Source: an uncultured Verrucomicrobiae bacterium
GTDB taxonomy: Bacteria; Verrucomicrobiota; Verrucomicrobiia; Opitutales; JABDGR01
Reading direction: 5' to 3'
Assembly: GCA_963765205.1 (NCBI GenBank)
Contig: CAVXVB010000009.1
Location: 1,435,936 to 1,499,935 of the forward strand
DNA length: 64,000 nt
The translations under genes were made by a program, and so were the position numbers. Positions 12,407-52,676 of the stretch are shown one piece after another. The notes beneath the pieces were generated by a model. It worked only from the letters and a program-made list of their open reading frames with translations. It was not told the origin of the DNA and ran no database searches. Position 1 is the first letter of the stretch, and each line of letters opens with the position of its first letter.

Positions 12407-13467
12407 ATGCTCGCCGTCGCCTCCTCTGGAACCTTGCTGGGCATCCATGCCCATGCGGTGCAAGTCGAGGTTAACACCGGCGAGGAAGGCAAGCCGGAGA
12501 CGGTGCTCGTCGGCTTACCGGACGCGGCGGTGAAGGAATCGGTGAACCGCGTGTGGTCGGCGCTGCACAACTGCGGGTTTCGCGCGCCGGCGACCAAGAC
12601 GACCATCAACCTCGCGCCCGGCGATTTGCGCAAGGAGGGGCCGCTGTTTGACTTGCCGATGGCGCTGTCGGTGCTCGCCGCGACGGGGCAACTGGCGCCG
12701 GAGAGTTTGCAGCCCTACCTCATCGCCGGGGAACTGAGCCTGTCGGGCGGAACGCGGCCGGTGGTGGGCGGGCTGGCGCTGGCGCTGCTTGCGCGGCAAC
12801 TGGGCAAAGCGGGTGTGCTGCTGCCCGCCGCCACCGCCGAGGAGGCCGCGCTGGTGGACAAGGTGCCCGTCCACGCCGTTGCGTCGCTCGACGAAGCGGT
12901 GCGGTTTTTGAACGGTGAAAAATTCTTGCCGCGGCTCGACCCCGCCGCCAGCCCGTTTCGCCGCCCGCCGGACACGCGGCACTCGGTGGATTTCTCGGAA
13001 GTCAAAGGCCAACACGCCCTGCGCCGGGCCGTCGAAGTGGCCGTCGCCGGCGGACACAATTTGCTGATGGTCGGCAGCCCCGGCTCGGGCAAAAGCATGA
13101 TCGCGAAACGCATCCCCACCATCATGCCGGAGCCGACGCTCGACGAATACTTGGAACTGCTCGCCATCCAGTCGGCGGCGGGCGCGTCGCTCGCGCCGGA
13201 GAACCGGTGCTTCCAGCGGCCGTTCCGCGCGCCGCACCACACCATCAGCGATGTCGGGCTGCTCGGCGGCGGGGCGATTCCCGGCCCCGGCGAAATTTCC
13301 CTCGCCCACAACGGCGTGCTGTTCATGGACGAGTTGCCCGAGTTCAAACGCTCGACCCTCGAAGTGCTGCGCCAGCCACTCGAAGACGGCGAAGTGAGCA
13401 TCTCGCGCGCGGCGGGCAAAATCACCCTCCCCTGCGCCTTCATGCTCGTCGCGGCGATGAACCCCTG
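12407..13467 (+). pseudogene. comM: ComM/YifB Mg-chelatase-like ATPase, N-terminal 353 codons, interrupted by the integrated element
   Basis: [54 protein letters not shown]; stops at LVAAMNP. Confidence 0.97.
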
Positions 13468-14957
13468 AGGTTGCGTTGACCTTTTGTCAGTTCTTCAAAG
13501 GAAGGTAAGTGCTTGAGGTTCACCGTGATCTCGTCGGTGCCGACAACGATGTTGTCGGTAATGCTTTCAACAATACGGCGTTTAACTTCTCTCTCCAATT
13601 GAGGCCAACGGGTATAGACGTTTGTCGCTTCTTGGAGCACTTCATCGGCAGACAGGTTGTTGACCTTGTGGTGGGTAATCTCGGCTTCCAGTTTAAGCAC
13701 CTCGTCCTCTTGTTGCTTTTTCCTTTCGGCAAGGGGTTTGTGGAATTCCCCGAATTGGTCACTGGTGAGCTTTTCCTCAACATAGAGGCGGTATACCCGG
13801 TCGATTTCCTTTTGGGTATTTTGCTTCTCTTGAAGCTTGCCTTGGAGGGTGTCCTCTAGCCTTGAAAGCGATTCATTTGCATGGGCAAGGGCTTGCTCGA
13901 CACGCTCGCGGGAGGTGAAGAGTCCTTTGAGTTCGCCTACATAGACCGACTCAAGATCGTCAGCCGGGATTTTGTTCCGGCATTTTTGGCAGGTGTATTT
14001 GACGGTGTCCCCAGGAATATACATCTTCTGGCCGCAGGCGCAGAACACTAGACCCCCAAAGATTTGCACAGCCTTTCTTGTCGGACGTTTCCGCTTGCCT
14101 TCCCCATACCCCAAGAGGTCGTTGCACTGTTGCCAAAGTTCAGGGGAAATAATCGGCTCCACATCGGCATATTCCCATTCACTTTCGGGCTTGAAGTCCC
14201 ACCCCATTTTGACGCCACGCGACTTTGAATAATTGAGCCGATGCTTGCCCTTTGCCGTCGGGTCAGCAAGGAGTCGGCCTACGGTGGTATCGGAAAACTT
14301 TGAGCCGTTGCGAGTGCGAAACCCGGCAGTGTTCAAAAGTTTCGCTACCGTCAACTTTCGCTTGTGTTCAAGAAAAAGCTCATACATGCGCTTACGCACG
14401 CGGGCTTCATCAGGATGTAAGACGAGTTTTTTATTTTTAAGCTCGTAGCCAAAGGGCGCTTGCCCGCCGAGGTGCTTGCCCATCTTGGCGCGGACAACGA
14501 CGGAGACGGCAACACGATCAGCGATTTCCTCTCTCTCCCACGTCGCCGTCGCCGCGATCATGGTATAGAAAAGGCGACCGGATGGAGTTGAGGTATCAAT
14601 GGATTCTTGAAGTGAAATGAGGTCAGCGTTGGCATCGCGGAAGTAGTCCGCGAAGTTGAGCAGTTGCCGGGTATCGCGGGCAAGCCGGGCGAGCTTGGAG
14701 AAAATGAGGCCGGTAATATGCCCCCGCTTAACGTCGGCAAGCATCCGCTTTGTTTCCGGGTGGTCAGTGACAGAAGCACCGCTCACACCTTCCAAGTGAT
14801 AGACCTCTTTTATATTCCAGCCCTTGGCCTCAGCGTAATAGCGGGCACGCTGTTCATGGTGTTCTGGGCTTTCGCCCTTGGCTTGATCATCGGTTGAAAC
14901 CCGAATCCAAACCCCTACCGCTTTCGTGCCGTTTCCTTCATGGATGATTTTTTTCAT
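13440..14957 (-). CDS. Large serine recombinase; ORF runs through attL, last 8 aa (RGSSPRRA) read from antisense comM
   Basis: WIRVST catalytic Ser, [13 protein letters not shown], zinc ribbon CACG...CQKC, coiled coil. Confidence 0.95.
13466..13485. other. attL: crossover TG (13466-67) + AGGTTG + arm CGTTGACCTTTT
   Basis: comM homology ends at TG; the arm is the exact reverse complement of 52657-52668. Confidence 0.9.
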
Positions 14958-15199
14958 TCCCTGAAAAAAGGGTTTTTTACCCCGGCAGTCAACACATCAT
15001 TTCATTATGTTGCGTTGCTAACTTTAGAACACTGCTTGCCTTTTCCTGCGACGAGCTTTGTGTGCCCATTCTCGGAAAAGGCCCCAGACGGGTCAAGCTA
15101 TGTAGCCAATCACTACGCCTGGCATAATTGATTGTGCTTGCAAGCTCACCCGCCGCTCACTTGAAGTAATCCTATTGGCGGGTTAAAATTAAACGAAAT

Positions 15200-16123
15200 A
15201 TGAAAAGTTTCTACCGCGTCATGTTGGGGCAACAAAGTGTTCATGCCGCAGAGTGTTTCGCCGGCAACTTCATTGGAACCGATTTCGGCATCATCCAAGA
15301 TCTCTCTCCCAAGCTGCCAGAGGACTGGCGGGCGTTTAACAAGGAGTTCATTCCTATTTACCTGTCCTCGCATCCCGATAAAACTAGGATCGGTGCGGGA
15401 CTGGCCTGCGGCGCTTTGTGGACGGTTTCCAAAGGGATTCAGAAAGGCGACATTGTTCTGTGTCCCGACGGGTCGGGCAAGTATCGAGTAGGTGAAGTTA
15501 CAGGTGATTACTACTTTGAACCGGGCAAGATTTTATTCCATCGGCGGCCTGTTACTTGGCTAAATATGACCATAGACAGGGCCAGCATGAGCGAAGCATT
15601 GCAAAACTCTACTGGGGCAATCGGCACGGTCAGCAACATCACAAAATATCGCGATGAAATTGAGAAGTTAATCGGAGGCGTTTCTGCCCCAAAACTCATT
15701 TCCACAGATGCAACCATTGAAGACCCATCCGCCTTTGCTTTGGAGGAACATTTGGAGGATTTTTTGGTAAAAAACTGGCCACATACCGAACTAGGTAAAG
15801 ATTATGACATTTACGAAGAGGACGGCGAAAAAGCCCAACAATACAAAACCGATACCGGCCCCCTAGATATTCTGGCCATCAGCAAAGACAAAAAACGCCT
15901 GCTCGTAGTGGAGTTGAAGAAAGGCCGGGCAAGCGATACCGTAGTTGGTCAGACACTCCGATACATGAGTTATGTTCAAGAAGAACTGGCCGAAGAGGGC
16001 CAGACAGTTATGGGTATAATCATTGCCTATGAGGATGACAAAAAAATCCGACGCGCCCTAACAATGACGCCCAATATTGTCTATTATCGCTACCAAGTCA
16101 GTTTCAAATTAACAAAGGGCTGA
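15200..16123 (+). CDS. NucS/DUF91-like PD-(D/E)XK endonuclease domain protein
   Basis: LEEHLEDFLVKNW, GPLDILA...VVELKKG...VGQTLRYM. Confidence 0.8.
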   Translation: MKSFYRVMLGQQSVHAAECFAGNFIGTDFGIIQDLSPKLPEDWRAFNKEFIPIYLSSHPDKTRIGAGLACGALWTVSKGIQKGDIVLCPDGSGKYRVGEVTGDYYFEPGKILFHRRPVTWLNMTIDRASMSEALQNSTGAIGTVSNITKYRDEIEKLIGGVSAPKLISTDATIEDPSAFALEEHLEDFLVKNWPHTELGKDYDIYEEDGEKAQQYKTDTGPLDILAISKDKKRLLVVELKKGRASDTVVGQTLRYMSYVQEELAEEGQTVMGIIIAYEDDKKIRRALTMTPNIVYYRYQVSFKLTKG

Positions 16124-16224
16124 ATTGAATGGCATCGGCAAAAGTAAACACTCGGTAGCCCGGCAACCCTAAAAAAAATTGTGATTGCATCTAAAACATC
16201 AAGTTCCATAGCGTTTAGCTTGTT

Positions 16225-16413
16225 ATGCCAAAGAAAACAAAAAAAGCTGACGCCACAGGTCGAGACGACGAAATGTCGCAGATTTCCATCTCGTTGCCTA
16301 AATACCTTATTGACCAAATTGACACCATGGCAAATGCCGAGAATCGAAATCGTTCCAACTTTATATCGAACGAAATGAGAAAGCTTGTGGCAAGTTCCAC
16401 CTATTTTTTTTGA
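16225..16413 (+). CDS. Ribbon-helix-helix (CopG-like) protein
   Basis: QISISLPKYLIDQIDTMANAENRNRSNFI. Confidence 0.7.
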   Translation: MPKKTKKADATGRDDEMSQISISLPKYLIDQIDTMANAENRNRSNFISNEMRKLVASSTYFF

Positions 16414-19400
16414 GCTTTGCTCTGGGCTGATTTTACAATGGCTTGAGCGATTGTCCGCTCCGCTTCTTCGCGCTCGGAAACGCTCAGTGCCCGATAGTTT
16501 ACCTTCACTTTGTAACCCTTGGAAGACCGCTCTCCGCTCGCTTCCTTTGCTTCGATTTCTTGCACAAAGGTAAAGAGTTCTTCCGGGGTGCAGAAACGGG
16601 TCCGGTCTTGTTCCTCACGCGAAAGCCCCTTTGAAACGGCACGCTTCATTTTCTCGACTCGTTCCGTTTCAGAGCAGATGAGAAATACATATTGAAACCC
16701 GGCGCTGACGCATTTCTTGACGTTGCCGATTTCTTGATCGGCTGGCGTCGTTATTGAAATCTCACACGCAATTGTCCGCGCACCTTTTTCTAAAGCGACA
16801 TCAATGCTCCCCGAACCATTAAGCACCTGTTTTTCGATTGTTGCACGGTATCCCATCCCCTCGGCCCATTGCTTGATAAGCGACTGAATTTGTTTGTGCA
16901 CTTGGCCACCCCGCCCAGGTGATGCCGGTTCCTGTTTTACGACGGGTGGTTCAACCACAGGCGCAGGCGCAACTTTTGTTTCAATTTCAGGCGACGCAAG
17001 CGGTGTAAAAACTGGTTTTGGCGGAGGCGGAATAGGTTTTACCGGAGCAACGGGAGGCGGAGGCGCCTTCTCCGTATGAACTTTTTGCCCATCATTCAGC
17101 ATGGCCTCAATTTGTGCTCGTGGCGTGGCATACTTTGCCCGTGAAGCCGCGATCACTTCCCGCCGCCGTGTTGCTGCTTCCGTGTCAATCGGATAGACCG
17201 CATTCGGAACCGAGAGGTTGAAATCAAAATCGCTTCGTTCGACTCGACAGATAGCAGAACCTGTCCCGAGGTTTTGCAGATCGCGTGCCTCAAAAGAGGT
17301 GAAGCCGTTTTCCAAAGCCCGTGCATCTTGATCGCCAACGCGGAAGCATACACGGGTATAACTATTGGAAACGACGGCGCTGGCGACCTCACGATCACGC
17401 TCTAACTGCCTCAAATCCTGATGCGCGAGAACAAGGCCCAGCCGGTATTTTCTCGCGCCGGAAAGAATTTCCGCCATTGAGGGCGTGATAAAATTATGGA
17501 ATTCGTCAATATAGAGGTAGAAGTCGCGCCGTTGCGCTTCTTCTTGCGCCTGGCGACTCATTGCCAGTTGTTGTAGTTTGGAGACCAGAAGCGTGCCGAG
17601 GAGATACGAGTTTTCCTTGCCAATGGCTCCTTGAGAAAGCTTTGCCAAAAATATTTTCCCGCCATCAAGTATTTGAGCGAAATCCAGTTTGTTTTCTGTT
17701 TGCGACACCATGTAGCGGATAGATTTTGGCGTGAGAAAAGTTTCCAGCCGGGTAAGAACCGGGCCGATTGATTTGTTTCCCGACAAAACCGGGAACCCCT
17801 TGCGCCAGTAATACACGACCCCAGGGTCACGGACAGTTGCGAGGAATGATTCACGAAATGCCGGTTCCAAAAGAAAACGCCGAAGGTCAGAAAGCGAACC
17901 GCCCTTATCGCTTTCAAGAAATGCGAGTATGGCATTACTCAATACCGACCCCATTTGATCCCCCCATGACTTTGAGAGCCGTTCAAAAACCGAGACCAAG
18001 TCCGAAGCCAACAGCGTCTTTTCCAATTCAGAGTGCGCGTGGAGGATATTGAACCCGACCGGAAACTCTAAGTCCGAAGGATCGAGCAACACCACATCGT
18101 CAATCCTTTCCGGCGGAATAATGCCAAGAATGCGGTCAACCAAGTCACCGTGCGGATCAAGCAGCGCGACTCCCCTTCCACTTTCAATGTCCTGACGTAT
18201 GCAGTTGAAAAATAGCGTGCTTTTTCCGGTGCCACTTGCGCCTATGATATGCACATGGCGCATCCTTTGTTCAGGAGTGAGAACAACCTTCTTTTCAACT
18301 TCCAAGTGAACGTTGCTCCCGAGGACAAGACCTTGATCGTGAAGCACCACAGGGGGGGCCGCTTTGCTCTTTGATGTCTGTCCGCGAAGCTTTGTTGAAT
18401 GCACATCGGCTGACGGCAAATGCACGAGGCTGATAAGCTCATCGGAATTGAGGAGCATTCCCGAACGGTGCGACTCCCGACGCAGCATATCTCCCTCATG
18501 GTCGAGTGAAACGTAACCATCATTTTTTAACGGGATAATATGGTTTCCTTCTGGATTTTCAAACACCCCCAAGGCCCCAATTATGTTCCGGGCGATGTCA
18601 GTCACCCTATCTGGCCTTGAGCTTTTTGCCGCTACTCGCAAAACAGCCGCGTAGAGCAGGCGCGATATTTTCTGTTTGGCCCCGGAAAAGAGCGCAGGCG
18701 CATTCACAAAAAATGCGTCACCGGCCCCATCAGTCACCGATTGAAAAATGCTCTCTGACCACGGATGACGCACTGGCCCAAAGATCACTTGAAATACCCC
18801 CACTTCGCTTTCCCCCAATTCACCGAGCGCCCCAACCAACGGAACAAGCGGGTCCACCTTCCCAAGTGCAAGCGGAAGCATGAATTCCTTTGCCAGTCCG
18901 CACTCGACAATAACCGCTTGAGCTTTGCCAGGCTTTGCCCACGTCTCGCGCAAATGGTTTTCCTTGGGTAAAGTGGCAACGTCAGGAAAGAACGTCGCAA
19001 GTTGTTCGCGCACCAGGGCCACATCAGCCGGATGGACAACCAACTGTGCTGTTATGCGATTGGCATTCCCCACCAATTCAAATGTCACCGGCTCGCGGCA
19101 GGCCGAAACACTTGCCAGAAAATATGAGTAGGCTTCCCGGCTAAACGCCTGGGTTGCAGGCACGAATGTTTGCAGTTCGATCAATCCACCACGCGAAAGG
19201 AAGCGCGGCTCCGATTCATCCTCATTATTTTCTTCGATTGACGCGGGCTGTTTCTCGCCAGTAAGCCGGTCACTTATCCCGCGCAAAAAGGAACCCAACG
19301 CCGACGGCTTTCGACTGTCATCAATAATTTGCGGGGCACCGGCATAATGTCCGGTGAAAGGACGAAAGGCCGGTTCAGGAAAGACCGGCTCACTCCACAA

Positions 19401-19487
19401 CTGCCAGCCCCGCCCGCGCAGTTCCCAGCGCAGGAATTGCTCGGTAAGCTTTTCTTCGATAGACGACATGCGTGCAAGGTAGGCCAC
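16401..19487 (-). CDS. VirD4/TraD-like (HerA-FtsK superfamily) ATPase with a C-terminal PD-(D/E)XK-like domain
   Basis: GASGTGKST, DPHGDL, YIDEFHNF, ARKYRL; Pro-rich linker followed by IDVALE...ACEIS. Confidence 0.85.
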   Translation of the reverse strand: MAYLARMSSIEEKLTEQFLRWELRGRGWQLWSEPVFPEPAFRPFTGHYAGAPQIIDDSRKPSALGSFLRGISDRLTGEKQPASIEENNEDESEPRFLSRGGLIELQTFVPATQAFSREAYSYFLASVSACREPVTFELVGNANRITAQLVVHPADVALVREQLATFFPDVATLPKENHLRETWAKPGKAQAVIVECGLAKEFMLPLALGKVDPLVPLVGALGELGESEVGVFQVIFGPVRHPWSESIFQSVTDGAGDAFFVNAPALFSGAKQKISRLLYAAVLRVAAKSSRPDRVTDIARNIIGALGVFENPEGNHIIPLKNDGYVSLDHEGDMLRRESHRSGMLLNSDELISLVHLPSADVHSTKLRGQTSKSKAAPPVVLHDQGLVLGSNVHLEVEKKVVLTPEQRMRHVHIIGASGTGKSTLFFNCIRQDIESGRGVALLDPHGDLVDRILGIIPPERIDDVVLLDPSDLEFPVGFNILHAHSELEKTLLASDLVSVFERLSKSWGDQMGSVLSNAILAFLESDKGGSLSDLRRFLLEPAFRESFLATVRDPGVVYYWRKGFPVLSGNKSIGPVLTRLETFLTPKSIRYMVSQTENKLDFAQILDGGKIFLAKLSQGAIGKENSYLLGTLLVSKLQQLAMSRQAQEEAQRRDFYLYIDEFHNFITPSMAEILSGARKYRLGLVLAHQDLRQLERDREVASAVVSNSYTRVCFRVGDQDARALENGFTSFEARDLQNLGTGSAICRVERSDFDFNLSVPNAVYPIDTEAATRRREVIAASRAKYATPRAQIEAMLNDGQKVHTEKAPPPPVAPVKPIPPPPKPVFTPLASPEIETKVAPAPVVEPPVVKQEPASPGRGGQVHKQIQSLIKQWAEGMGYRATIEKQVLNGSGSIDVALEKGARTIACEISITTPADQEIGNVKKCVSAGFQYVFLICSETERVEKMKRAVSKGLSREEQDRTRFCTPEELFTFVQEIEAKEASGERSSKGYKVKVNYRALSVSEREEAERTIAQAIVKSAQSKAQKK

Positions 19488-19549
19488 ACCGGCAAAAAAG
19501 GCGCACTTTATCCACGGCTGGATTACGCCTAAATTGTCAGCAGCTACTT

Positions 19550-20239
19550 TTAAGGTTTGTCTTTGCCGTCAGCAGTTACGCCGCCATACCTGAACTGCCC
19601 GAATGCTGCCAGTGCCAGAAAAATAACCGCAAGCCAAAATCCTTCCTTTAAGTCCATTGTGATCATTCCGCCAGCTTGTTGAGCCATCTCGTTCTCCATT
19701 GCGCTTTTGGTAACGAACAATGCCACGACCCCACCAATGCCGAACCCTCCACTGACTAAGCTCGTCGAGCGCCTGCGATTCAGTGCAAGCAGTAAACCGG
19801 CCGTCGTCAGACCGAATGCTACAATCGCCGCCGGGTAATGATATGGCGCAATGTTTAGAGCTTTATCGCCCAAAATCAATTGCTGCCCCGTAAGGCTAAT
19901 GCTCCCAAATGAAGAAAATTCAAAGAAAGGCAGCGTAAAGCTTAGCCCCGCAAGAATAAAGAATACCCAAAACAGCCCTCCAATCTTTTGCATATCCGCC
20001 CCCGAAAGTTTTTCTTTGCCAAGTGACGCGTCAACAACCGGCACGCTTGATGTAGGGGCTGATGTTCCGGCAATTGCAACGACAGTTTTGCACGTCACCC
20101 ACTCGACTGTGTTATCCAAACGCACCGGCGTTTCGTCAGTCAAAATGCCCGCTTGACGCAGTTGTGCAATGGCGGACATCGGGAGTGGGCCGATCTCGCG
20201 ATTTTCGGCGTCCCGATAAAAATAGTTTGGGGTGCTCAT
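19550..20239 (-). CDS. GYF_2/DUF4339-like N-terminal domain membrane protein
   Basis: YFY....EIGPL...LRQAGILTDETPV...EW followed by 4 TM segments. Confidence 0.7.
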   Translation of the reverse strand: MSTPNYFYRDAENREIGPLPMSAIAQLRQAGILTDETPVRLDNTVEWVTCKTVVAIAGTSAPTSSVPVVDASLGKEKLSGADMQKIGGLFWVFFILAGLSFTLPFFEFSSFGSISLTGQQLILGDKALNIAPYHYPAAIVAFGLTTAGLLLALNRRRSTSLVSGGFGIGGVVALFVTKSAMENEMAQQAGGMITMDLKEGFWLAVIFLALAAFGQFRYGGVTADGKDKP

Positions 20240-20272
20240 AGTTTTGGGGTATTTGCATTGCGTTTTTCGACA

Positions 20273-21103
20273 TCAGATAGGCGGAGGCACCGCCTTTAAT
20301 GCGACGCTGCCGGTTTTATAGAGTTCTCCAAAAATTGGACTGTATTCTTGCGTTTTGAGGAGCTTAATTCCCTTTGCAGATGTTACGTCCTCGATTTTCT
20401 TTTTCACCACATCAGCGACTACGCTTTGATACATAATTCGCGTGTCTTGGCGATAATAGGTGTCTTTCCGAAAATATTTTCCATACAAGGCACCGATCAC
20501 CGGTGAGTTGAGCAACGTGGCGTCCAAATCGCGTAGGCCAACACCAACCGCATTGCGTAAGAGCACCACCGCAACGACGAGCGCCAGCAGAAGTAACACC
20601 GGTCCGGCATAGTATCCGAACCATTGTTGACTGAATCTAAAAGCAATTCCGACGCCGAAAAGCACGATAAGATACTGCCAAAATGGCACAAAAGCTGGCG
20701 TTTCTACAAATCGGTAGGAGAAAAAATAGTTGGTTCCGAACGGAGCCGCGCACACGTCAAAGATCAAGCGTTCGCGCTTCATCCGCAGATATTCCCGCTT
20801 GTCAGACAAAAGCCCACCTTCCGACAGATCAACGCGGGTGATTTCAAGTCCAGGGACTTGCTGTGCTTTAAGAATATTTTCAACTTCCGCGTAGAAATCT
20901 TTGGAGGAAAGCTGGCAGTCAGGAATAAGCGTGCACCAGTGATCAATGACTTCCGGCCCAATGAGTTTTGCCGCCCTCTCCCAGCCGCTTTCAACGCTCT
21001 GCGTAAGAAATCCGGGAAGGATGTTTTGGAGAAAGCCCATGGGGTTAAGGGTGTTATGTAATTTCTTGGCAATCAAGGGTCTTTTCCCCTTCTCTGTCAA
21101 CAC
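20273..21103 (-). CDS. Hypothetical membrane protein (start probably 21040)
   Basis: Long ORF with two TM segments, co-oriented with its neighbours. Confidence 0.65.
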   Translation of the reverse strand: MLTEKGKRPLIAKKLHNTLNPMGFLQNILPGFLTQSVESGWERAAKLIGPEVIDHWCTLIPDCQLSSKDFYAEVENILKAQQVPGLEITRVDLSEGGLLSDKREYLRMKRERLIFDVCAAPFGTNYFFSYRFVETPAFVPFWQYLIVLFGVGIAFRFSQQWFGYYAGPVLLLLALVVAVVLLRNAVGVGLRDLDATLLNSPVIGALYGKYFRKDTYYRQDTRIMYQSVVADVVKKKIEDVTSAKGIKLLKTQEYSPIFGELYKTGSVALKAVPPPI

Positions 21104-21131
21104 TGATTGATACGGCCATTAAAAGCGTTCC

Positions 21132-21286
21132 TGTGGACAACCCTTAACGTTGTCCACACTTTCCCCTATCCATCGCCTATAAGGCGGACATTAAGATTTT
21201 GTTATATTAGATTAAGATTAAGATGCGATGGCCTACCTATACCCTATCCGTAGGGTATGGATTCTCCATCCATCAGTTTATCCACA
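21132..21286. promoter_or_regulatory. Origin-like region: DnaA-box-like 9-mers, AT-rich tract and palindrome
   Basis: TGTGGACAA 21132-40, TTGTCCACA 21150-58, TTATCCACA 21278-86, ttaagat repeats, ATACCCTA-tccg-TAGGGTAT. Confidence 0.45.
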
Positions 21287-21355
21287 CCCCCTCCCTTTGA
21301 CACGATTTGCGGAAAGTGTATATTTAATTCACTCATGGCTTCGGCCTCCGAGATT

Positions 21356-21382
21356 CCCCTCCGCAAGGAGGGGTTTCGTTTT
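21356..21382 (+). terminator. Intrinsic terminator-like hairpin on the + strand
   Basis: CCCCTCC-GCAA-GGAGGGG followed by TTTCGTTTT. Confidence 0.65.
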
Positions 21383-21764
21383 ATAGGAGTCGAATCAATT
21401 GATTTCGCAATCTTGCAAAATCGTCCTCAGACATAACGCCCACTTTTCTTCCGAGACGTTTTGGAGAAAGAATTCTCATTTGTGAAAGGATGGCTTCGTT
21501 ATCCTTGTCGGCATGTTTGAAGCGGAAGTAGGATTTGCCAGTGTGACTCTTTGACGTAATCGGAATTCCCCAAAACATATTTTCGTTGAAGGCTTTGAAT
21601 ATCAGCACTGGCCGAGCAAAGTTTTCATTTTTACCGTCCTCTTCCGAGCCTACATTTGCTCCGATTGAACAAATCCAAATCTCGCGCGGATGCCAAAATA
21701 CCTTCTGCTTATTATCGTTGAGTTTGATCTTGAGAGCGTTCCAATTCGGAAAATCTTTTTGCAT
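21381..21764 (-). CDS. PemK/MazF family toxin
   Basis: REIWICSIGANVGSEEDGK...RPVLI...GIPITSK...LSQMRILS.KRL. Confidence 0.85.
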   Translation of the reverse strand: MQKDFPNWNALKIKLNDNKQKVFWHPREIWICSIGANVGSEEDGKNENFARPVLIFKAFNENMFWGIPITSKSHTGKSYFRFKHADKDNEAILSQMRILSPKRLGRKVGVMSEDDFARLRNQLIRLL

Positions 21765-21776
21765 CGGATTATTTTA

Positions 21777-22269: not shown

Positions 22270-22559
22270 TGTTTTTCGATTAACTAATAATCTGTGCGCG
22301 GTCGGTAAACGCCCAGCGAAGCCAGGCCGACCCGCCGGGGTCACGGCGCACTTGTTAGAACGGAATAATCTTTTCTCTCGATTGAGAGTCAATGATTATT
22401 CCGTCACCTTCTGATATAATGCCTTCGCGAAGAAGGAGTTTTTGCACCCTTCGCAATGCCCGAAGTTGTTTTCGCAACATCAGGCAACGGTTTTCTCTTT
22501 TTATAGGCACATACCGAAATCTCACTCGTTCCGACATAGATCATTTGATTTTAACGAAT

Positions 22560-26700: not shown

Positions 26701-26709
26701 AACTGATTC

Positions 26710-43676: not shown

Positions 43677-44134
43677 AGTAAGGCAAGTCGAACATGCTTC
43701 TTCCAATTCTCCCATTGGCCGTCGCCACGGTAGACAAATGCACTTACTCCATTAAGATTTAATTTATTCCCCTTTGCGTAATTCGGGACGATTAAGCCAA
43801 CATGGTCTATTCTTGGCATCATCGGATGCTCCTTGTCAGACTCGCTTTGGCCAGTCCATTAACCGGGATGTGTATGCACGTCAGCAATTACTCGCAAGCC
43901 GGCATCCTGGCAAATTTTTGCTAATGGAACATATCCCGATCCGTCGAATCGAATGTACCCTTCATCCAGACAGTGAGCATCAAGATCATCGTAATACACG
44001 ACTCGACAAACACGACGTTCACCACCCCGAGCCAATAAAAATGCTCCGCTTTCACGGCGGCCATATCCCCGCCGACGGAGTCCACTGATCAGTGTAAGCC
44101 AAAGAGATCGTCCAATAATGATTTCAGCAGCCAT
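43673..44134 (-). pseudogene. JAB/MPN+ deubiquitinase (BilC-like) with in-frame TAA at 43859-43861
   Basis: RESGAFLL...DVHTHPG*WTGQSESD.EHPM; frame stays open to the TGA overlapping the E1 start. Confidence 0.85.
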
Positions 44135-44597
44135 GATATTCCTCCGATGCCAGAAGTTCATGCGTAAGCCGTAAATAGTGGACAATGGTTCGGGTTCGCT
44201 TCCAACCTAGACCAGGATGTTTCGTCGCCCAATCCGCATGAGCCGCCATGGCAACTCTGTCCCATGGCACATATAGCGCCACAGCATTATTCCAATCGAT
44301 GCGAAATGCCATTCTTACATCAGCAATTCCTTTGGGCCATTTCGCTAAATCCAGTCGTTCATTCCGTTCTGGATTCCATACGGTAGCCGTCGGGCCCATC
44401 TCTGGGTAGTCCTTCAGAAAGAATCGAAAATGATAGCGGTCAGGAGCATTAGGCCGGATTGGCGCAGCAATCCATAGAACAACGTGTGGCCACACGACTG
44501 CATCGCTAGCCACCACGTCCCACCAACCGCGCTCGACTCCATATTGAAAGTCTGGCGTAGTCATGTGTTCCTGAAAACATTCTTGGTCGAGAGTCAT
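44124..44597 (-). CDS. Prokaryotic E2-like protein (BilB-like)
   Basis: YPEMGPTA..W...WP...ALYVPWDR...H..W; position in the Ubl-E2-JAB-E1 operon. Confidence 0.7.
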   Translation of the reverse strand: MTLDQECFQEHMTTPDFQYGVERGWWDVVASDAVVWPHVVLWIAAPIRPNAPDRYHFRFFLKDYPEMGPTATVWNPERNERLDLAKWPKGIADVRMAFRIDWNNAVALYVPWDRVAMAAHADWATKHPGLGWKRTRTIVHYLRLTHELLASEEYHGC

Positions 44598-45085
44598 CCT
44601 TGAATGCGGGATGCTGGGGTGAAGTAAAGGGTTAATTCACAGGGATGCCCATGGACAAGCGATCCTATATGCACAGCGTGCGCGAGAGGGTCGCCCTCCG
44701 CAGTAAGGCGTAGCGTGTACTTCCCACCCTTATCAACAGAAAAGTGCTCTATAACCCAGCGTAACAGTTTCCCGATTGTCGCGCCCGGACGAAAAATATG
44801 TTCTCTTTTTTCATCAACGTGGATGAATGTCACCTTGATTTGACGACACCGGTGAGCATGATAGCGCTTTCCGTGACGCTCGTGGGTCAGGTAGCGTTCG
44901 CGCGGAAGCTCTTCATCCGAATCTTCTTCAAAGATGAAGATTTCTTCTGCCTTAACATCACCAAATTTTCCAGTGGCAATTAGAATCAAAGCTAGTGCTT
45001 CGATGGTTTTGGGCTCATCCAATTCAAACGAATGGGTTTGTTCAAGTCCACCAAGGTGGACAAGGATGCGTTTTGAGGGAGTCAT
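44594..45085 (-). CDS. Tandem ubiquitin-like protein (ISG15-like, BilA-like) ending in Gly
   Basis: 163 aa, two beta-grasp-sized units, C-terminus SRIQG; first gene of the operon. Confidence 0.8.
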   Translation of the reverse strand: MTPSKRILVHLGGLEQTHSFELDEPKTIEALALILIATGKFGDVKAEEIFIFEEDSDEELPRERYLTHERHGKRYHAHRCRQIKVTFIHVDEKREHIFRPGATIGKLLRWVIEHFSVDKGGKYTLRLTAEGDPLAHAVHIGSLVHGHPCELTLYFTPASRIQG

Positions 45086-45127
45086 GATGTGTTTTTCGTT
45101 TATGGTTAAACAGTGCGACTGTCGCCT

Positions 45128-45156
45128 AATGTAAGCCTACATCGGCTTACACGCAA
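45128..45156 (-). promoter_or_regulatory. Sigma70-like promoter of the Ubl operon with overlapping operator palindrome
   Basis: TTGCGT-17-TACATT; TGTAAGCC-n6-GGCTTACA at 45130-45151. Confidence 0.6.
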
Positions 45157-45233
45157 GCAAAAAAACACTTTTTTAAAATTTTATTTGGTCGAAGCTAAAT
45201 GCCGAGTAGAGCATTCGATATAATGCTGAATTT

Positions 45234-45599
45234 TTATCGTGATCTATTCGCATAAAGTTCCTTCAGTTTTGAGGCGATTTCCTCCGGAGATAGTGAACCT
45301 GCGTTCACATGCTCAACTACTGACTGAAAAACTAATCCCAACCTTGGGCTCGACTCAGCGAGTCGTTTAAGATCACCCATTGCACTTCGCGTGTCCAAGT
45401 ATTTCAATTCTTCAGGACGTGTCCCGAGCTTCTTGGCGATCCGTGTCAATATCTCGTCTGAAGGGTAGCGGCGTCCTAACTCAACATCCGAGAGGAATGG
45501 GGCTGATATACTAACAGCTCGCGCAAGTTCACGTAACGAAATACCTGTCTTTTTGCGCAGTTCACGCAATTTTCCTCCTAAAGCGATTTCATTCGTCAT
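45234..45599 (-). CDS. XRE-family HTH regulator upstream of the Ubl operon
   Basis: LGGKLRELRKKTGISLRELA...FLSDVELGRRYPS. Confidence 0.85.
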   Translation of the reverse strand: MTNEIALGGKLRELRKKTGISLRELARAVSISAPFLSDVELGRRYPSDEILTRIAKKLGTRPEELKYLDTRSAMGDLKRLAESSPRLGLVFQSVVEHVNAGSLSPEEIASKLKELYANRSR

Positions 45600-45781
45600 G
45601 CAGTAGCTTATGACAGCTAACAGAGCAGCGTCAAGGTGTATTTTAAAAGAACGCTGACAGAAAGCAAAAATGGATTCGTTAGGTGTTGCATTGTCCACGA
45701 ACGTTTTGATATTGACTTGCTTGGCCTGTTTTATGCTTCAATGCTTGCGCCTTGATGAATTCTCACCCTCAAGCGTTTACT

Positions 45782-45970
45782 ATGGACCCCAAAGCGACAT
45801 CCATTTATGCAAGCCCAAAAGAAGTCGCTGGGAAAATCGCTGCCCGCACAGGGGGGAGCCCTTCGACTATTTCCGTCCAAATGGTAGGCTCTCGTGAAGT
45901 TGAGAAGTTCATCTCCCGAGTTTTGAAGGCAAAAAAGAATATCCGTAAAGTAAAATTGCAACTGGATTGA
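45782..45970 (+). CDS. Small basic hypothetical protein
   Basis: MDPKATSIY... 62 aa, directly upstream of the papain-like gene. Confidence 0.45.
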   Translation: MDPKATSIYASPKEVAGKIAARTGGSPSTISVQMVGSREVEKFISRVLKAKKNIRKVKLQLD

Positions 45971-46003
45971 CTTCGCCTCAAAAGTTTCTAGCCTTGATAT
46001 TCA

Positions 46004-47563
46004 ATGTCAAGACTGGTGGCACCAAACGGCATAGCGGAAATCGTTGCTCTTGAGCAGCCATTTTCAAATTTTTCCTACGCCGAAGAACACTTCCAGGGAA
46101 GTTTTCCAATCCGTCGGCTATTTTCTCAAGCACGCGGACGTAAGTGTAAAACCCTCGTTATTGAGGATGTTCCGCCGGCCGCAGCAGTTGAGGACGAAAA
46201 CACTGAAATTCGTGAACTTTTCCCGGATTACCAAATGGCGGGTCTAAAACGCCTATCATTTTGGCTCACTAAGTTTTCTGATTCCGATGCCCTCAGTACC
46301 ATCAGTGCCTCTGAATGTATTGGTTATGCGTTGTTGAAACACGATGTCTGTCCCATACGAAAGCTAGATTTATGGCACGTCTTCGAATCCGCCATTGCTA
46401 AATACGATCACCCTCACAACTACACTCCTTGTGCAAAGCCAATTTCATTTCGTGTTGGGCAAAGGGAATTTAGCGTCTCAGCGGTTTTTTATTGTCAACA
46501 AAATCGTCTAAACAAAGCTTGCGCGCAGGTAGCTTTGCGAAGCATATGTGCGACTTATCTGTCGGATTTCGATCTTTCATTTAAGCGCATCAACGACTTC
46601 GCATTTGTTCAGCCAGAGGCACGCACGCCTTGGGTAGGACTCCAAATTAATCAAATTGTTCGCGTATTGGATGGCCTTGGCATTCCATTTGATGAGACCT
46701 ATTACGACCCAAATAAGCGCGGCAGGAAAACATTCCGAGAATCCTTTCCCTACCAACGGATTTTGTATAGCGGTGTTGAATCCGGTATGGGGGGACTGTT
46801 AGCCTTTATGATGCGAGGGCGTGGAGCTACAAATGTTGGCCATATGATTCCTTTATTCGGCCATACTTTCAACGAAGATGCGTGGGCGCCACATGCTCAC
46901 GTCGAATATTTTAACGTTGGTGAAGAAATCCGCTTTATACCAAGTGATGCTTGGTTGAGCAGTTTTATTGTCCATGATGACAATTTCGGGTCAAACCTGT
47001 GTATCCCCAAGGCATACTTGCCGAAAGAAGCAGTTCGATACGTCATCGCATTACTACCCCCTGGGTTTGTCTACCCAGGTCTTTATGCCGAGCTTTCCGC
47101 TGCGGATTGTTTTTACTCCATGATTCCAAAGATTCCTAACCCAACGAATCCGTGGATTACACGTCTTCTAGGTTACTACGAAGACAAGAGACTTATTCTC
47201 CGCCATGTTCCAATTACGAAAGATGGGTACCTAACCCATCTGAGCACGATGAGTGATTGGGATGGAGGAAGTGAAAACAGCGAAATCCTACGGCATTTGC
47301 GTGAAACAAATTTTGCGGATAAAATGTGGATGATCGAACTATCTGTACCCGACCTCTTTTCTACGAACAAACGCAAAATCGGGGAACTACTTTTTGCTGC
47401 CGACAAATTCTACACAAATAAAACAGATTTCACTCTTTTCGTTTTGGCTAGATTTCCTGGCATTTATATGTTTTTTAACGAGTTTAACGCCCAAGGAGTG
47501 CCTGAATTTGTTATGAATGAAAGCTGGATTAAGTCGCATACGCCACTGTTTGGCACGCGTTAG
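46004..47563 (+). CDS. Hypothetical protein with a papain-like (C39-type) catalytic set
   Basis: QQNRLNKACAQVAL ... GHMIPLFGH ... VHDDNFG. Confidence 0.55.
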   Translation: MSRLVAPNGIAEIVALEQPFSNFSYAEEHFQGSFPIRRLFSQARGRKCKTLVIEDVPPAAAVEDENTEIRELFPDYQMAGLKRLSFWLTKFSDSDALSTISASECIGYALLKHDVCPIRKLDLWHVFESAIAKYDHPHNYTPCAKPISFRVGQREFSVSAVFYCQQNRLNKACAQVALRSICATYLSDFDLSFKRINDFAFVQPEARTPWVGLQINQIVRVLDGLGIPFDETYYDPNKRGRKTFRESFPYQRILYSGVESGMGGLLAFMMRGRGATNVGHMIPLFGHTFNEDAWAPHAHVEYFNVGEEIRFIPSDAWLSSFIVHDDNFGSNLCIPKAYLPKEAVRYVIALLPPGFVYPGLYAELSAADCFYSMIPKIPNPTNPWITRLLGYYEDKRLILRHVPITKDGYLTHLSTMSDWDGGSENSEILRHLRETNFADKMWMIELSVPDLFSTNKRKIGELLFAADKFYTNKTDFTLFVLARFPGIYMFFNEFNAQGVPEFVMNESWIKSHTPLFGTR

Positions 47564-47766
47564 CGGGGTTTAGGGCTCGCGCGTAGTGGGCCTTGTTTTG
47601 CTTTCGATGTTTTCGGGCCGCGCTGTACGCAGGGGTCTTCCCCCTGCACCCCGCATTGTAAAAGAACTTCGGTTGCAACACGTCCGCTGACGAAAATCTT
47701 AGTAGAGTCTTTTAGGAGCAATTGACTTTACAGTAATCGTGCAGAGGCACATGTTATTCTTATTGT

Positions 47767-50700
47767 ATGTATAAAGACACGACAGGTAAGTTGGTCTACT
47801 CCCCAACCGATTTGATTCGGTTCATGGAATCGCCTTTTGCTAGTTGGATGGAGCGCCTACACCTGGAGCATCCAGGACGGGCCGAACCTGACCCTGAAAA
47901 CGAAGAGCGGAAATTAATTGCGACAACTGGGGACATTCACGAGAAAAAGTTTCTTGAAAACTTGCAGGCACAACACAAAGACGTTTGCATTATTATTAAG
48001 AATGACTCTGCCATTCAAAGCACTCTTGCCGCAATTAAAGCCAATCGGGAAATTATCTATCAGGCGTGTTTGGAGTTAAAACCCTTTCGGGGTTACGCAG
48101 ATTTTCTGGTGCGCAGCATGGATACATCCGCCGGAACTCCCCATTACGAATTGCTGGACACCAAACTGGCACGGAAGACAAAGCCTTATTATTTGATTCA
48201 ACTATGTTGTTACGCAGAAATGTTAGCTGCGGTGCAAGGGCAATTGCCTGCAAAGTTGCAGGTAGCTTTGGGCGATAACTCAATTCAAGAATTTTGCACG
48301 GCAGATTTCTTCCATTATTATCTAATGCTCAAAGAGGCTTTTCTGCGGCAGATGAAGGATTTTAATCCCGAACAACAACCACTGCCAGAACCGCGAGCCG
48401 ACCATGGCCGCTGGGCCTCATATGCGGAAAAAATGCTTTTGGCGTCAGATCACTTAGTCCAAGTGGCAGGAATCACCGTAGGGCAAATCAAGAAATTGAA
48501 TGCCGCAGGCATCACAACCGTTGCAGAACTTGCGCAATCCACTGACATAGTTGTTCCAAAATTTCAAACCGACATTTTAACACGGTTGTGTGAGCAAGCT
48601 TCTCTTCAAGTTCAGACGCGGGAACTCAGAGCCAAGGCGAAACCTGATGAAACTATCACTCCGGTTTATCGTGTTATTTCGCCCTCAGCAGATCAACCCC
48701 GTGGAGGGCTTGCGCTACTCCCTCTTTCAAGTCCCCTCGATGTATATTTCGACATGGAGGGCTTCCCTTTGGTGGAAGGCGGTTTGGAATATCTTTTTGG
48801 TGCAACCTATCTTGAAAATGGAAAACCTATCTTTGTTGACTGGTGGGCGCATGACGCACTTGGAGAAAAATCTGCCTTGGAGGGCTTCATTGATTGGGCA
48901 TACGCGCGATGGAAGGCCGATCCTTCTATGCACATTTATCACTACGCGAGCTATGAAGTTAGTGCAGTCAGACGACTGATGGGAAAATACGCTACTCGGG
49001 AGGATGAAGTCGACGATCTGCTACGCCATGAAGTTTTCGTAGACCTTTTTCAAATAGTGCGCCAAGGATTGCGAGTAGGCGAACCAAATTACTCTATTAA
49101 GTCCATTGAGCACTTATACCGGCCAATGCGTAAAGGCGGAGTGGGAACCGCAGGAGAATCCATGGTCTACTACGCTTATTGGTTGGAAAGTGGAGAATCC
49201 CCAAAGTGGCAAGATTCACCGATTCTTAATAGCATTCGTGAATATAATCGGGACGACTGCGAATCTACCTGGCTACTTGCTGAATGGCTGCGAGCACGCC
49301 AGAAAGAAAACAGCATTCATTACCAACCTCCACATGCTAAGGAGGATGAACCGGCTGGCAACGACCCTGAAAAGGAAGCGCAAATCATTGCTTATGCCGA
49401 GTTAAACGCCCACCTCACCAAAAAAGCCAATGAAGACAGCGATGCGGAAAGCCGCCAAATCGCCGGACTATTGAAAGATATTTTGGAATTCCACCGACGG
49501 GAAGAAAAACCAACGTGGTGGCAGATGTTCGAGAGAGCTTCCCTTACCCACGAGGAATTAAAGGACGACTTGAATTGCATAGGCGATGCCACTCTAGTTT
49601 CTGGATCACCAGAGGCAGTGAAACAATCGTTCGTTTTTACCTACCGCTTTGACCCCTGGCAAGAAACCAAGATAAATGTCGGTGACCGGGTTATGTTCAA
49701 CCATAATATCAATGCAAAAGCAGAAGTGGTGGAATTAGACGGAGACAATGGTCAACTCAAAATTAAAATTGGGAAAAAAGCGTTAAGTGAAAAACTCGAT
49801 GGTCAGGCACCGTCACACACATCATTTTTACCGGTAGAACATGTCCCAGCCGTGGGAATCAAACAGGCGATTTTTGATACGGCAGCAGCATGGAACAGCC
49901 AACATCAATTACCGAATGCTTTGCGACGGTTTTTACTTCGTCAACCGCCTCATCTGCCTGACCAAAAGAAAGACGAACCCCTAGCCCGAGACGGAGAAGA
50001 AATGGTAGCAACCGCAGTTAGGATTGTTTCAGCAATGGAAGATTCTACGTTGTGCCTACAAGGGCCGCCAGGCACAGGAAAAACTTTTACCGCTGCCCGC
50101 ATGATAGCAGCGTTACTTTCCCATGGAAAAAAAGTGGGAATCACTTCCAACAGCCATAAGGCTATCACTAATTTATTGTCCGCGATCCAAGAGGTGCCGG
50201 ATTGTAACCTGCATGGAATTAAAGTCGGAGGAGATACCAATGACCCAGAGTTAGCAAAATGTCCCGGCATCGCCTACGTGCAATCGACGAGCGAAGCCCA
50301 TAGTGAATTCTCTGGAGGTGGTGTAGCTGGAACAGCTTGGCTCTTTGTGCGTCCAGAATGGGAAAAAGAATTGGATTACCTTTTTGTGGATGAAGCTGGG
50401 CAAGTTTCTTTAGCTAATCTGGTCGCGATGTCTCGTTGTGCGCGTAACTTGGTACTTCTTGGTGATCAAATGCAATTACAGCAACCGGTGCAAGGTTCTC
50501 ATCCCGGCGAAAGCGGCTTAGCAGCATTGGAATACTACCTGAACGGTCATGCAACAATTCCTTCGACTCTAGGACTTTTCCTCCCCGAGACCCGGCGCTT
50601 ACATCCCGCAATTTGCAAGTTCATTTCAGAACTCGTTTATGAAGGGCGCTTAAAATCTTGTGTAGGTAATGAAATGCGGAAGATTATTGTTCCCGGAACA

Positions 50701-51213
50701 AGTGGAGAGATAGAGGCATTCAGTCGAGAAGCGGGACTCTATTTTATCCCAGTGATACACGACGGAAATATTCAATCTAGCGACGAAGAAGCGGATAAAA
50801 TTGTGCGATTAGCAACCTCCTTGTTGGGCCGAAGCGTGACTAACGAAAAAGGCCAGCCCGCCGGTGCAATAGGATGGGCAGACATGCTTTTTGTTGCGCC
50901 TTACAACTTGCAAGTGCGCAAGTTGCGCGAACGTCTTCCAAGCGAGGCCCGCGTCGGAAGTGTGGACAAATTTCAGGGTCAAGAAGCGGAAATAGTATTC
51001 ATTTCACTTTGTTCAAGTTTTGGAGAATATGGCAGTCGCGGTATTGAGTTCATCCTCGACCAAAACCGTATGAATGTGGCTATCTCTCGCGCACGCGTCC
51101 TTGCAATAGTTGTTGGTGACTCTAGGATTGCCACAACTCCTTGCACGACCATCGATTCCATGCGTCGTCTCAATCTGCTTTGCCGGTTGGTGCTTGAACA
51201 CAGCTACAAATGA
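47767..51213 (+). CDS. TM0106-family RecB-like nuclease / RNase H-like / SF1 helicase fusion
   Basis: SPTDL, GYADFL...DTKLA...QL..Y, YFDMEG, YNRDDC, QGPPGTGKT, DEAGQ, VDKFQGQE, NVAISRA. Confidence 0.9.
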   Translation: MYKDTTGKLVYSPTDLIRFMESPFASWMERLHLEHPGRAEPDPENEERKLIATTGDIHEKKFLENLQAQHKDVCIIIKNDSAIQSTLAAIKANREIIYQACLELKPFRGYADFLVRSMDTSAGTPHYELLDTKLARKTKPYYLIQLCCYAEMLAAVQGQLPAKLQVALGDNSIQEFCTADFFHYYLMLKEAFLRQMKDFNPEQQPLPEPRADHGRWASYAEKMLLASDHLVQVAGITVGQIKKLNAAGITTVAELAQSTDIVVPKFQTDILTRLCEQASLQVQTRELRAKAKPDETITPVYRVISPSADQPRGGLALLPLSSPLDVYFDMEGFPLVEGGLEYLFGATYLENGKPIFVDWWAHDALGEKSALEGFIDWAYARWKADPSMHIYHYASYEVSAVRRLMGKYATREDEVDDLLRHEVFVDLFQIVRQGLRVGEPNYSIKSIEHLYRPMRKGGVGTAGESMVYYAYWLESGESPKWQDSPILNSIREYNRDDCESTWLLAEWLRARQKENSIHYQPPHAKEDEPAGNDPEKEAQIIAYAELNAHLTKKANEDSDAESRQIAGLLKDILEFHRREEKPTWWQMFERASLTHEELKDDLNCIGDATLVSGSPEAVKQSFVFTYRFDPWQETKINVGDRVMFNHNINAKAEVVELDGDNGQLKIKIGKKALSEKLDGQAPSHTSFLPVEHVPAVGIKQAIFDTAAAWNSQHQLPNALRRFLLRQPPHLPDQKKDEPLARDGEEMVATAVRIVSAMEDSTLCLQGPPGTGKTFTAARMIAALLSHGKKVGITSNSHKAITNLLSAIQEVPDCNLHGIKVGGDTNDPELAKCPGIAYVQSTSEAHSEFSGGGVAGTAWLFVRPEWEKELDYLFVDEAGQVSLANLVAMSRCARNLVLLGDQMQLQQPVQGSHPGESGLAALEYYLNGHATIPSTLGLFLPETRRLHPAICKFISELVYEGRLKSCVGNEMRKIIVPGTSGEIEAFSREAGLYFIPVIHDGNIQSSDEEADKIVRLATSLLGRSVTNEKGQPAGAIGWADMLFVAPYNLQVRKLRERLPSEARVGSVDKFQGQEAEIVFISLCSSFGEYGSRGIEFILDQNRMNVAISRARVLAIVVGDSRIATTPCTTIDSMRRLNLLCRLVLEHSYK

Positions 51214-51221
51214 AGCACTGA
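51149..51221 (+). repeat. 73-bp exact direct repeat, copy 1 (copy 2 at 52189-52261)
   Basis: ccatcgattcc...tgaagcactga identical at both sites. Confidence 0.95.
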
Positions 51222-51329
51222 ACCAACGTTTACAAGATAGCTGACCTCGCCGGCACCGAGCGCATTGAGCTTCCACACCTACTTGAGGCTATTCAATACC
51301 GTTCCCTTGACCGCGCTCTTTTTTGTTAG
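51204..51329. pseudogene. Relic junction: last 11 codons of the HTH gene (-) fused to the last 29 codons of comM (+)
   Basis: [11 protein letters not shown] on - (51204-39); [29 protein letters not shown] on + (51240-329). Confidence 0.85.
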
Positions 51330-51965: not shown

Positions 51966-52188
51966 AACCGAACGGTTTCATTCTATGAAATCATTTTCCT
52001 GTGTTTTTGCAAGGAGAGTGTGAATCCAATCGAAACCCAGAATTCAAGCATGGTCGTGCAAGGAGTTGTGGCAATCCTATGAGCAAGGTTTCTGTCGTTA
52101 TTGAATAGGCCCGTTTCAAGCTTTCGAGTGGCATCGCGCACCCTTGATGAGGCTGGGTAGCATCACCCGTGTCCACTACATTTGACGG

Positions 52189-52261
52189 CCATCGATTCCA
52201 TGCGTCGTCTCAATCTGCTTTGCCGGTTGGTGCTTGAACACAGCTACAAATGAAGCACTGA
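52189..52261 (+). repeat. 73-bp exact direct repeat, copy 2
   Basis: Identical to 51149-51221. Confidence 0.95.
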
Positions 52262-52666
52262 GCTAATGTTTACCAGATATGCGCCCCTTGGAGTCCGCTC
52301 CCCTCTCTCCCATCCGGCAAGAGTTGATTGGTCAATGCCGAGGACTTTTGCAAAGACCTTTTGAGTCCACCCTTTGCCCTGCCGATACCAGACCAACTGT
52401 GCCCGTAGAGCTTCCGGCTTTGGAGTGGGGTTATAACCCAGGAAGGCGATGATAGCCGGGATGAATTTGACCTCTGGCGACACCCTTCCATCCTCCCAAT
52501 TCCATACGCTTGCCTCCACAACACCGATGCGTTGACCCACTTCCCTTTGCAGGAGCTTGAGATCGAGGCGACGCTTCCGAAGGTGGTCACCCAGCGTTTT
52601 TAACTCCTTTGGATAATCACAACTCTTTGGTTTTGAGGCTGTTAGCTTGAAGCCTAAAAAGGTCAA
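52244..52666 (-). CDS. Tandem XRE-HTH protein; in frame with the serine recombinase across attP
   Basis: [21 protein letters not shown]...NWE and [12 protein letters not shown]...[12 protein letters not shown]; first start is a TTG inside the att arm. Confidence 0.85.
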
Positions 52667-52676
52667 CGAACGGATG
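52657..52676. other. attR: arm AAAAGGTCAACG + AACGGA + crossover TG (52675-76)
   Basis: comM homology resumes at TG-C CCC TGC GGG (CPCG). Confidence 0.9.

Follow-up and report, generated by a model that had tools for sequence, protein, structure and literature searches.

Probable location of an attachment site inside the coding region of a large serine recombinase from an island in comM of an uncultured Verrucomicrobiae bacterium

In the characterised large serine integrases, the integrase gene is situated beside the attachment site attP and not across it, and the direction of the reaction is set by a separate recombination directionality factor (RDF). To our knowledge, none of these enzymes possesses a helix-turn-helix (HTH) tail of the XRE type. 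Recombinases which disrupt their own genes were considered exclusively archaeal in a 2021 review (PMC8371274); in these SSV-type systems, the integrase, its site and the control of directionality are described as one compact module (PMC8371274; PMC7253208). As to target genes, Durrant et al. reported that the Mg-chelatase gene is the target of 12.4% of the predicted site-specific large serine recombinases (LSRs) (PMC10083194), and the sr1WO prophages of Wolbachia were described by Bordenstein and Bordenstein as residing in a Mg chelatase gene, one end being occupied by a recombinase and the opposite, 3' end by HTH_XRE genes (PMC9203015). Here, a stretch of 64,000 nucleotides from an uncultured Verrucomicrobiae bacterium (the window; contig CAVXVB010000009.1 of assembly GCA_963765205.1, positions 1,435,936 to 1,499,935) is analysed, which contains an island inserted in comM. 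Sequence comparisons make it very likely that the attP of this island lies inside the coding sequence of its own LSR, in the linker between the core of the enzyme and an HTH tail, and that the circle does not encode the same products as the integrated form; this degree of confidence applies to the structural mechanism and not to any purpose.

The island of 39.2 kb (13468-52676) interrupts comM at the TG of NPC|PCG. Halves of comM with the Pfam domains Mg_chelatase, ChlI and Mg_chelatase_C are located on both sides of a block of lower GC content. The 5' part (Mg_chelatase/ChlI; 12362-13467, + strand) was delimited by Pfam, synteny and the intact comM of relatives; it includes the crossover TG, and the left junction makes a TGA stop (13466-13468) at its end. 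A full 3' part, copy 1 (52675-53166, + strand; Pfam), begins with the crossover codon. In six relatives (L002, L003, L005, L006, L009, L010) the reading of intact comM is AAMNPCPCGY, and the word CCCCTG is present twice in the intact gene. The left end in the window reads ...AAMNP and the TG at 13466-13467 (attL; CA on the recombinase strand), thereby containing the first CCCCTG word, and is followed by element DNA; at the right end, element DNA is followed by the TG at 52675-52676 (attR) and CCCCTGCGG, with the second CCCCTG word. Because the intact comM genes of the six relatives could be compared with both ends, the crossover was assigned to the TG dinucleotide, in agreement with the proposal of an earlier note on this DNA. 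The shared 6-bp CAGGGG, which would add two codons, had been considered as the core; it was ruled out by the same six genes, since comM itself contains the CCCCTG repeat twice. The insertion within comM and the position of the LSR at the end of the element are as in other LSR elements targeting comM or Mg-chelatase genes.

The LSR gene (13440-14957, - strand; 505 amino acids, aa), which was assigned by Pfam, homologue alignment and profile matches, reads across attL: residues 1-497 are encoded by the element, and residues 498-505 (RGSSPRRA) together with the stop codon are derived from antisense comM. At the far end of the island lies an open reading frame (ORF) of 140 aa (52244-52666, - strand) for a tandem HTH protein of the XRE type, with two stretches of PF01381 (HTH_3; E 7.4e-18). 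Its first start is a TTG in the P arm of attP, and the sequence AGGGG is found 10 nt upstream of this TTG. Joining of the element ends by a script resulted in a single open frame of 640 aa (497 + 3 + 140), as would be present on the circle. The LSR frame with its comM-derived tail, the HTH ORF with its arm start and the 640-aa fusion had all been claimed in the earlier note, and each was borne out. The joined site is an imperfect palindrome of 40 nt centred on the crossover. Its P' arm, AAAGGTCAACG (13474-13484, - strand), reads K-G-Q-R in the recombinase frame; the P arm, an inverted copy of the former (52658-52668, + strand), reads S-L-T-F in the HTH frame, and the crossover dinucleotide straddles the codon boundary. 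Exact matches to this 11-nt arm occur in the window only at these two positions; when up to one mismatch was allowed, four matches were found versus 1.33 expected.

An in-frame join in one window alone would be a 1-in-3 chance event. A close LSR was present in 7 of 401 genomes of the phylum. All five readable pairs of element ends (the window, G253, G371, G003 and G099) were joined in frame through palindromic sites; the attP sites reconstructed for the window and for the four genomes have CA or TC as the centre of the palindrome, attB being taken from intact comM. They conform to the attP of about 40 bp and the unrelated attB, alike only in a non-palindromic central dinucleotide, by which serine integrases are characterised. 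The pair from G099 (L017/L018) is located at a different target, has a TC core and is still in frame. G359 represents a decayed case. Among the best 120 homologues of the LSR, 98 possess antisense-comM tails in the same phase, which begin just after a conserved Q-R-N motif; six are natural LSR-HTH fusions of 644-655 aa with HTH_3/HTH_31 domains, and 16 are of other types or cut. In 104 of them the recombinase has no stop codon of its own before the crossover. A search with the HTH protein for longer proteins yielded 33, of which four (P0122, P0123, P0126, P0148) have the same type of junction, the others being members of a second LSR clade (see below) or fragments. The search for full-length fusions which the earlier note had suggested was successful. 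In the natural fusions both arms are present as conserved peptides flanking a short spacer, in a linker of conserved length without a stop codon.

The same geometry of an attP within the gene holds across many phyla. Loci of 80 HTH genes from Verrucomicrobiota, Acidobacteriota, Chloroflexota, Planctomycetota, Nitrospirota and others were compared. The 3' part of comM, in antisense orientation, precedes the arm TTG by 8-21 nt in 52 of the 80 loci (by exactly 9 nt in 47), and an LSR is fused in phase in three; in 25 of the 80, neither a comM 3' part nor a fused LSR was found. The P arm is GCGTTGCC in 54 of 74 loci. In seven loci (L038, L048, L059, L064, L090, L094, L103) the HTH/P-arm ends are preceded by another recurring reading, which is not comM. 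Apparently, the family makes use of one or more further attB sites besides that in comM. With the five joins, the family data take the in-frame arrangement, which the earlier note had proposed to examine in homologues, beyond the chance level of 1 in 3, with the restriction that the relatives are not independent. Of the interpretation given in that note, the structural part, i.e., an attP in the LSR gene and state-specific products, can be upheld on account of the fused homologues, the conserved junctions and the joins; its suggestions on purpose are weighed separately below.

It could be argued that the LSR and the HTH protein are encoded by independent genes whose phases are locked to the palindromic arms. 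The fusion on the circle would then be an unselected accident, and only the short enzyme and the free regulator would matter. Such an explanation, which is regarded as unlikely, would be in line with the dominance of detached forms, since 128 of the best 150 HTH representatives have 260 aa or less and 98 of the 120 LSRs are short. The free HTH proteins have their own starts (the arm TTG in 31 of the 150, an ATG at or near the crossover in 16) and are under purifying selection (dN/dS 0.13-0.23 for 10 pairs with dS 0.7-1.5), even in units without a recombinase, as in genome G003 with one LSR match and seven HTH matches; moreover, conservation of phase among kin is not independent evidence. It is more difficult to reconcile with the 104 homologues in which the recombinase is open up to the crossover, with natural long ORFs that are free of stops across a linker of conserved length, and with the in-frame join at the different target in G099. 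A separate clade of LSRs also argues against it. This second clade (P0129 and its 119 best relatives) consists of proteins of about 680 aa in which the HTH pair is permanently fused: all of the best 120 hits have 632-726 aa, and HTH_3 is listed for 119. Some of its members are on contigs of 1.56 and 8.65 Mb, and the records are labelled Bryobacteraceae, Solibacter or Acidobacteria. Compared to the LSR of the window, the catalytic domain is 35% identical and the rest cannot be aligned, the HTH pair is about 50% identical, and the linker differs and does not contain the arm peptides. Since the tail is kept fused throughout this clade, LSR-HTH is a real and selected protein architecture.

Genome G418 contains a single open frame of 654 aa, whose palindromic attP (centre CA) is uncut; comM is intact in this genome and is present on a contig other than that of the LSR-HTH gene. 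The uncut gene (contig C6, L107-L109) is flanked by an island-like block, with genes for a T4CP-like ATPase, TIR, a ThsB-like (Thoeris-like) protein, SLOG, Nmad2 and MazG_C, and by chromosomal-looking RHS and type IV pilus genes; it points away from the T4CP gene, opposite to the orientation in the window. No terminal overlap was detected in contig C6; the copy may be free, integrated elsewhere or misassembled. Assembled contigs of four public runs were compared with positions 12400-14600 of the window. A contig from X1, which is possibly the sample of origin, spans attL without a difference. From X4, a peat metagenome, a contig of 4,513 nt represents a related occupied site with 82 differences, and a contig of 307 nt from a relative matches 13189-13464 and continues into uninterrupted comM; past the crossover the latter corresponds to the AT-richer allele which flanks the cassette HTH genes of G003. 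Neither for the fused protein nor for the HTH protein was a close relative found among deposited phages and plasmids, all being below 60% identity and the best among the matches listed having 31%.

Several observations weigh against the proposed mechanism. The LSRs of genomes G256 and G368 (49% identity) end with their own stop codon, and no HTH partner was found in these two genomes, so that not all related enzymes require the tail. Decayed junctions occur: in P0112 the tail begins like attP and then diverges, and in locus L058, one of the 25 loci with neither a comM 3' part nor a fused LSR, a decayed LSR 3' remnant with two stops precedes an intact HTH gene. In the window itself, the HTH gene is part of a terminal unit of 1.35 kb, so that the present tail is not the original partner of the recombinase. 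An attP or circle joint, or a long transcript, was not present among the assembled contigs of the four runs; since such contigs drop rare forms, the missing joint says nothing about excision. A crude scan for sigma-70-like promoters upstream of the stranded HTH gene gave none, with the reservation that host promoters may differ. Finally, the relatives share ancestry and the palindrome may lock the phase; the homologue counts therefore indicate a family trait and not repeated selection. Since the recombinase reads through the left arm and the HTH gene starts in the right arm of the palindrome, the conserved phase may have been fixed once and then inherited, without selection on the fusion.

In the LSR of the window, PF00239 (Resolvase; residues 17-161, E 1.8e-31) and PF07508 (Recombinase; E 6e-15) were recognised; PF13408 was not reported at E <= 0.001. 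The motif R19-V20-S21, which includes the catalytic serine, and residues C306, C308, C323 and C326 are invariant across 42 LSR homologues. The LSR profile aligns with the integrase of SPbeta over query positions 54-473 and with the C-terminal domains of the A118 integrase over 267-480. The tyrosine recombinase fold (Phage_integr_3) of the SSV-type integrases is not that of this enzyme, which is a serine recombinase. Judging from these alignments, the short form of 505 aa keeps the whole known LSR domain set. This has a bearing on the notion of a suicidal integrase, i.e., that, as in SSV-type elements, the integrated gene is dead and excision depends on an intact enzyme supplied by a related element, be it incoming or in tandem. 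In principle the two layouts agree, and this locus commonly has tandem or related elements; none of the canonical domains is lost by the split, however, since the regions which align with solved integrases (catalytic, recombinase and zinc-ribbon/coiled-coil) are all within residues 1-480, and therefore this possibility appears very improbable. A 9-nt word of the P' arm, CAACGCAAC, is also present at 15009-15017 (- strand), 52 nt upstream of the recombinase start (three matches in the window versus 1.06 expected). Of nine regions taken for a comparison of such words, five do not reach the 5' end of the recombinase gene. Arm-like words near the recombinase start were found in G371 (one substitution) and G003 (two substitutions) and in none of the other six regions; as they are not consistent among relatives, a role as accessory half-sites is unsupported. 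An arm copy within the HTH gene, which is present in the window, was likewise discarded as an accessory half-site, because it occurs in only three of 74 loci.

With an attP inside the LSR gene, the following course of events may be envisaged. The free circle, or a head-to-tail junction, would give rise to the long enzyme, which would perform the integration reaction attP x attB. Integration would turn the output into a short core enzyme with a host-encoded tail and a free HTH protein, so that the protein set of the element would record its integration state. With respect to the purpose, a role of the HTH protein as regulator is ranked as most likely, followed closely by a role in directionality, and inactivation of the integrated enzyme is ranked as least likely, since its core is complete. 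Each of the two HTH domains resembles repressor-type XRE proteins, the profile relatives in the PDB being P22 C2, 434, SinR, HipB and the Xre of ICEBs1. The HTH pair could perhaps be a repressor-type DNA-binding module which is tethered while the element is free and released on integration, although this suggestion is a tentative one. In the free element, the HTH pair would be tethered to the integrase and made from the integrase promoter; after integration it would be released as an independent regulator, in a manner resembling integration-dependent immunity. Short inverted repeats near the element ends were inspected as possible operators of the HTH protein and nothing notable was found. A complex prediction for the LSR core (1-497) and the HTH pair, both supplied as alignments, gave a score of 0.25, compared to a mark of 0.32 and without controls, which speaks neither for nor against a complex. 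Six proteins (P0154, P0168, P0183, P0200, P0230, P0236) of 578 to 4162 aa contain 6 to 22 stretches of the HTH unit.

Alternatively, the split could serve directionality, which is held to be possible, if somewhat doubtful. Either the long form alone would be proficient in integration, or the freed HTH protein would be the RDF of the short enzyme; the short form, with or without free HTH protein, would be excision-proficient or inert. The same logic has been argued for the archaeal self-splitting integrases (PMC8371274). No RDF was recognised in the element by Pfam, though RDFs vary greatly among themselves; as a direct product of the reaction, the split would be the simplest possible sensor of state, and every array unit which lacks a recombinase retains an intact HTH gene beside its P arm. 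On the other hand, nothing distinguishes the HTH domains in appearance from common repressor-type XRE domains, and the members of the sister clade carry the tail permanently, unlike a factor which is switched on and off. Engineered fusions of integrase and RDF favour excision, which would be the wrong outcome for a circle that must integrate. The promoter scan mentioned above, crude as it was, also gave no signal for expression of a free HTH protein.

The earlier note had treated positions 13440-52676 as one simple element. This view has to be abandoned, since the island is composite, with a decayed junction inside and with the HTH gene in the terminal unit. The locus is an array of three units, each consisting of an HTH gene, a P arm and a comM 3' part. 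The first is a decayed older unit within the element (51145-51323), in which the 3' end of an HTH gene is joined to what remains of a foreign comM copy, namely its final 29 codons; the HTH gene end and 59 nt downstream of it are 95% identical to 52185-52279. The comM piece (51237-51323) matches copy 1 in 93% of 29 residues, but at the threshold of the search it had no counterpart at the DNA level in either of the other two copies; therefore it is considered foreign and was probably carried in from an earlier host. The second unit is intact (52244-53166). The third (57833-58396) is partly deleted, an HTH remnant without its first 34 residues (57833-58135, - strand) abutting the last 89 codons of comM (58130-58396, + strand). 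The first and third units have been shortened by deletions across the junction, and host synteny with relatives resumes after the third, from about 59.2 kb. In genome G003 (loci L027-L030, L022-L025, L004), which belongs to the same genus, four complete HTH genes are each situated 9 nt from a full comM 3' copy; these copies are 89-92% identical to that of the window and begin exactly at the crossover codon, and on one contig two such units are separated by 7 kb. By bringing a comM 3' half with them, such units could make comM whole again and recreate attB, and their arrays suggest how islands accrete at the comM hotspot. A more far-reaching idea would be that comM hosts a cassette platform. 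The shared phase would join any LSR to the HTH gene of any cassette, the LSR of the window having already swapped partners; units without a recombinase would restore comM and attB, and the tail would sense the state and set the direction. In view of the data at hand, this idea is rated as rather improbable.

The remainder of the island was annotated with Pfam. A backbone with cargo (16401-31560) includes genes for a T4CP-like ATPase of 1028 aa, two small ORFs, a MazF-type toxin domain, a tyrosine integrase, a second T4CP-like ATPase, a Replic_Relax protein, a primase and a DUF932 protein. Further cargo (33492-51213) comprises a type I restriction-modification system (HsdS, HsdM, HsdR), a GrpB-domain protein, DUF7665, an XRE HTH protein and a protein of 1148 aa with RNase_H_2 and AAA_11/12 helicase domains. 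Resistance genes were not seen in the cargo by Pfam. From its gene content, the island is probably an integrative mobilisable element. The tyrosine integrase is located in the middle of the island (22690-23826). Blocks with GC contents from 0.40 to 0.57 and shifts at about 24-32 kb suggest nested insertions within the cargo.

If the proposed mechanism is correct, the enzyme would rewrite its own C-terminus by its own reaction, which would be a new, self-contained link of direction or regulation to the integration state. The value attached to serine integrases lies in a direction of reaction that is simple and can be controlled. LSR catalogues compiled from integrated copies would list enzymes with host-derived tails and without their native DNA-binding domain, which could matter when such enzymes are trialled as tools for genome engineering. 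The arrangement of an attP within the gene is real, family-wide and apparently unpublished for serine recombinases: a literature search, which covered papers without their supplements, found no description of it for this class, in agreement with the statement in the earlier note that it was not known for LSRs. The array of three HTH/comM-3' junction units is new in the window.

When compared with known systems, the enzyme of the window has the same domain set as the integrases of SPbeta (SprA), A118/LI, TP901-1, phiC31 and Bxb1, and shares with them short imperfectly palindromic att sites and a 2-bp crossover. The LSR elements in comM/yifB, the gene of a Mg-chelatase or ATP-dependent protease, and the sr1WO prophages have the same target gene as the island described here; the accessible portions of the respective papers contain no mention of a recombinase frame crossing attP or of an HTH fusion (PMC10083194; PMC9203015). 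A likeness to mycobacteriophage BPs, cluster P and related phages consists in an attP in a regulator gene and in the altered form of an XRE-like regulator upon integration (PMC4557955). Here, it is the recombinase gene that is interrupted, and the regulator-like part becomes free at its N-terminal end; attP lies inside the recombinase gene where the HTH part begins, and not within a repressor from which a C-terminal degradation tag is removed. In the BPs type, it is the repressor gene which is cut, the integrase is a tyrosine recombinase, and the repressor loses a C-terminal portion upon integration. The closest similarity is to the suicidal tyrosine integrases of the SSV type (SSV1, pTN3, pT26-2), in which the attachment site is within the integrase frame and integration partitions the gene (PMC8371274; PMC7253208). 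The same holds for the window, where attP is within the integrase ORF and integration splits the gene, and the island would thus be a bacterial serine-type counterpart of a layout hitherto ascribed only to archaeal tyrosine integrases. The archaeal enzymes are separated into two inactive halves, whereas the bacterial LSR keeps its whole core and loses an accessory HTH tail, which, unlike the SSV-type halves, is provided with a start codon and shows the evolution of a functional protein.

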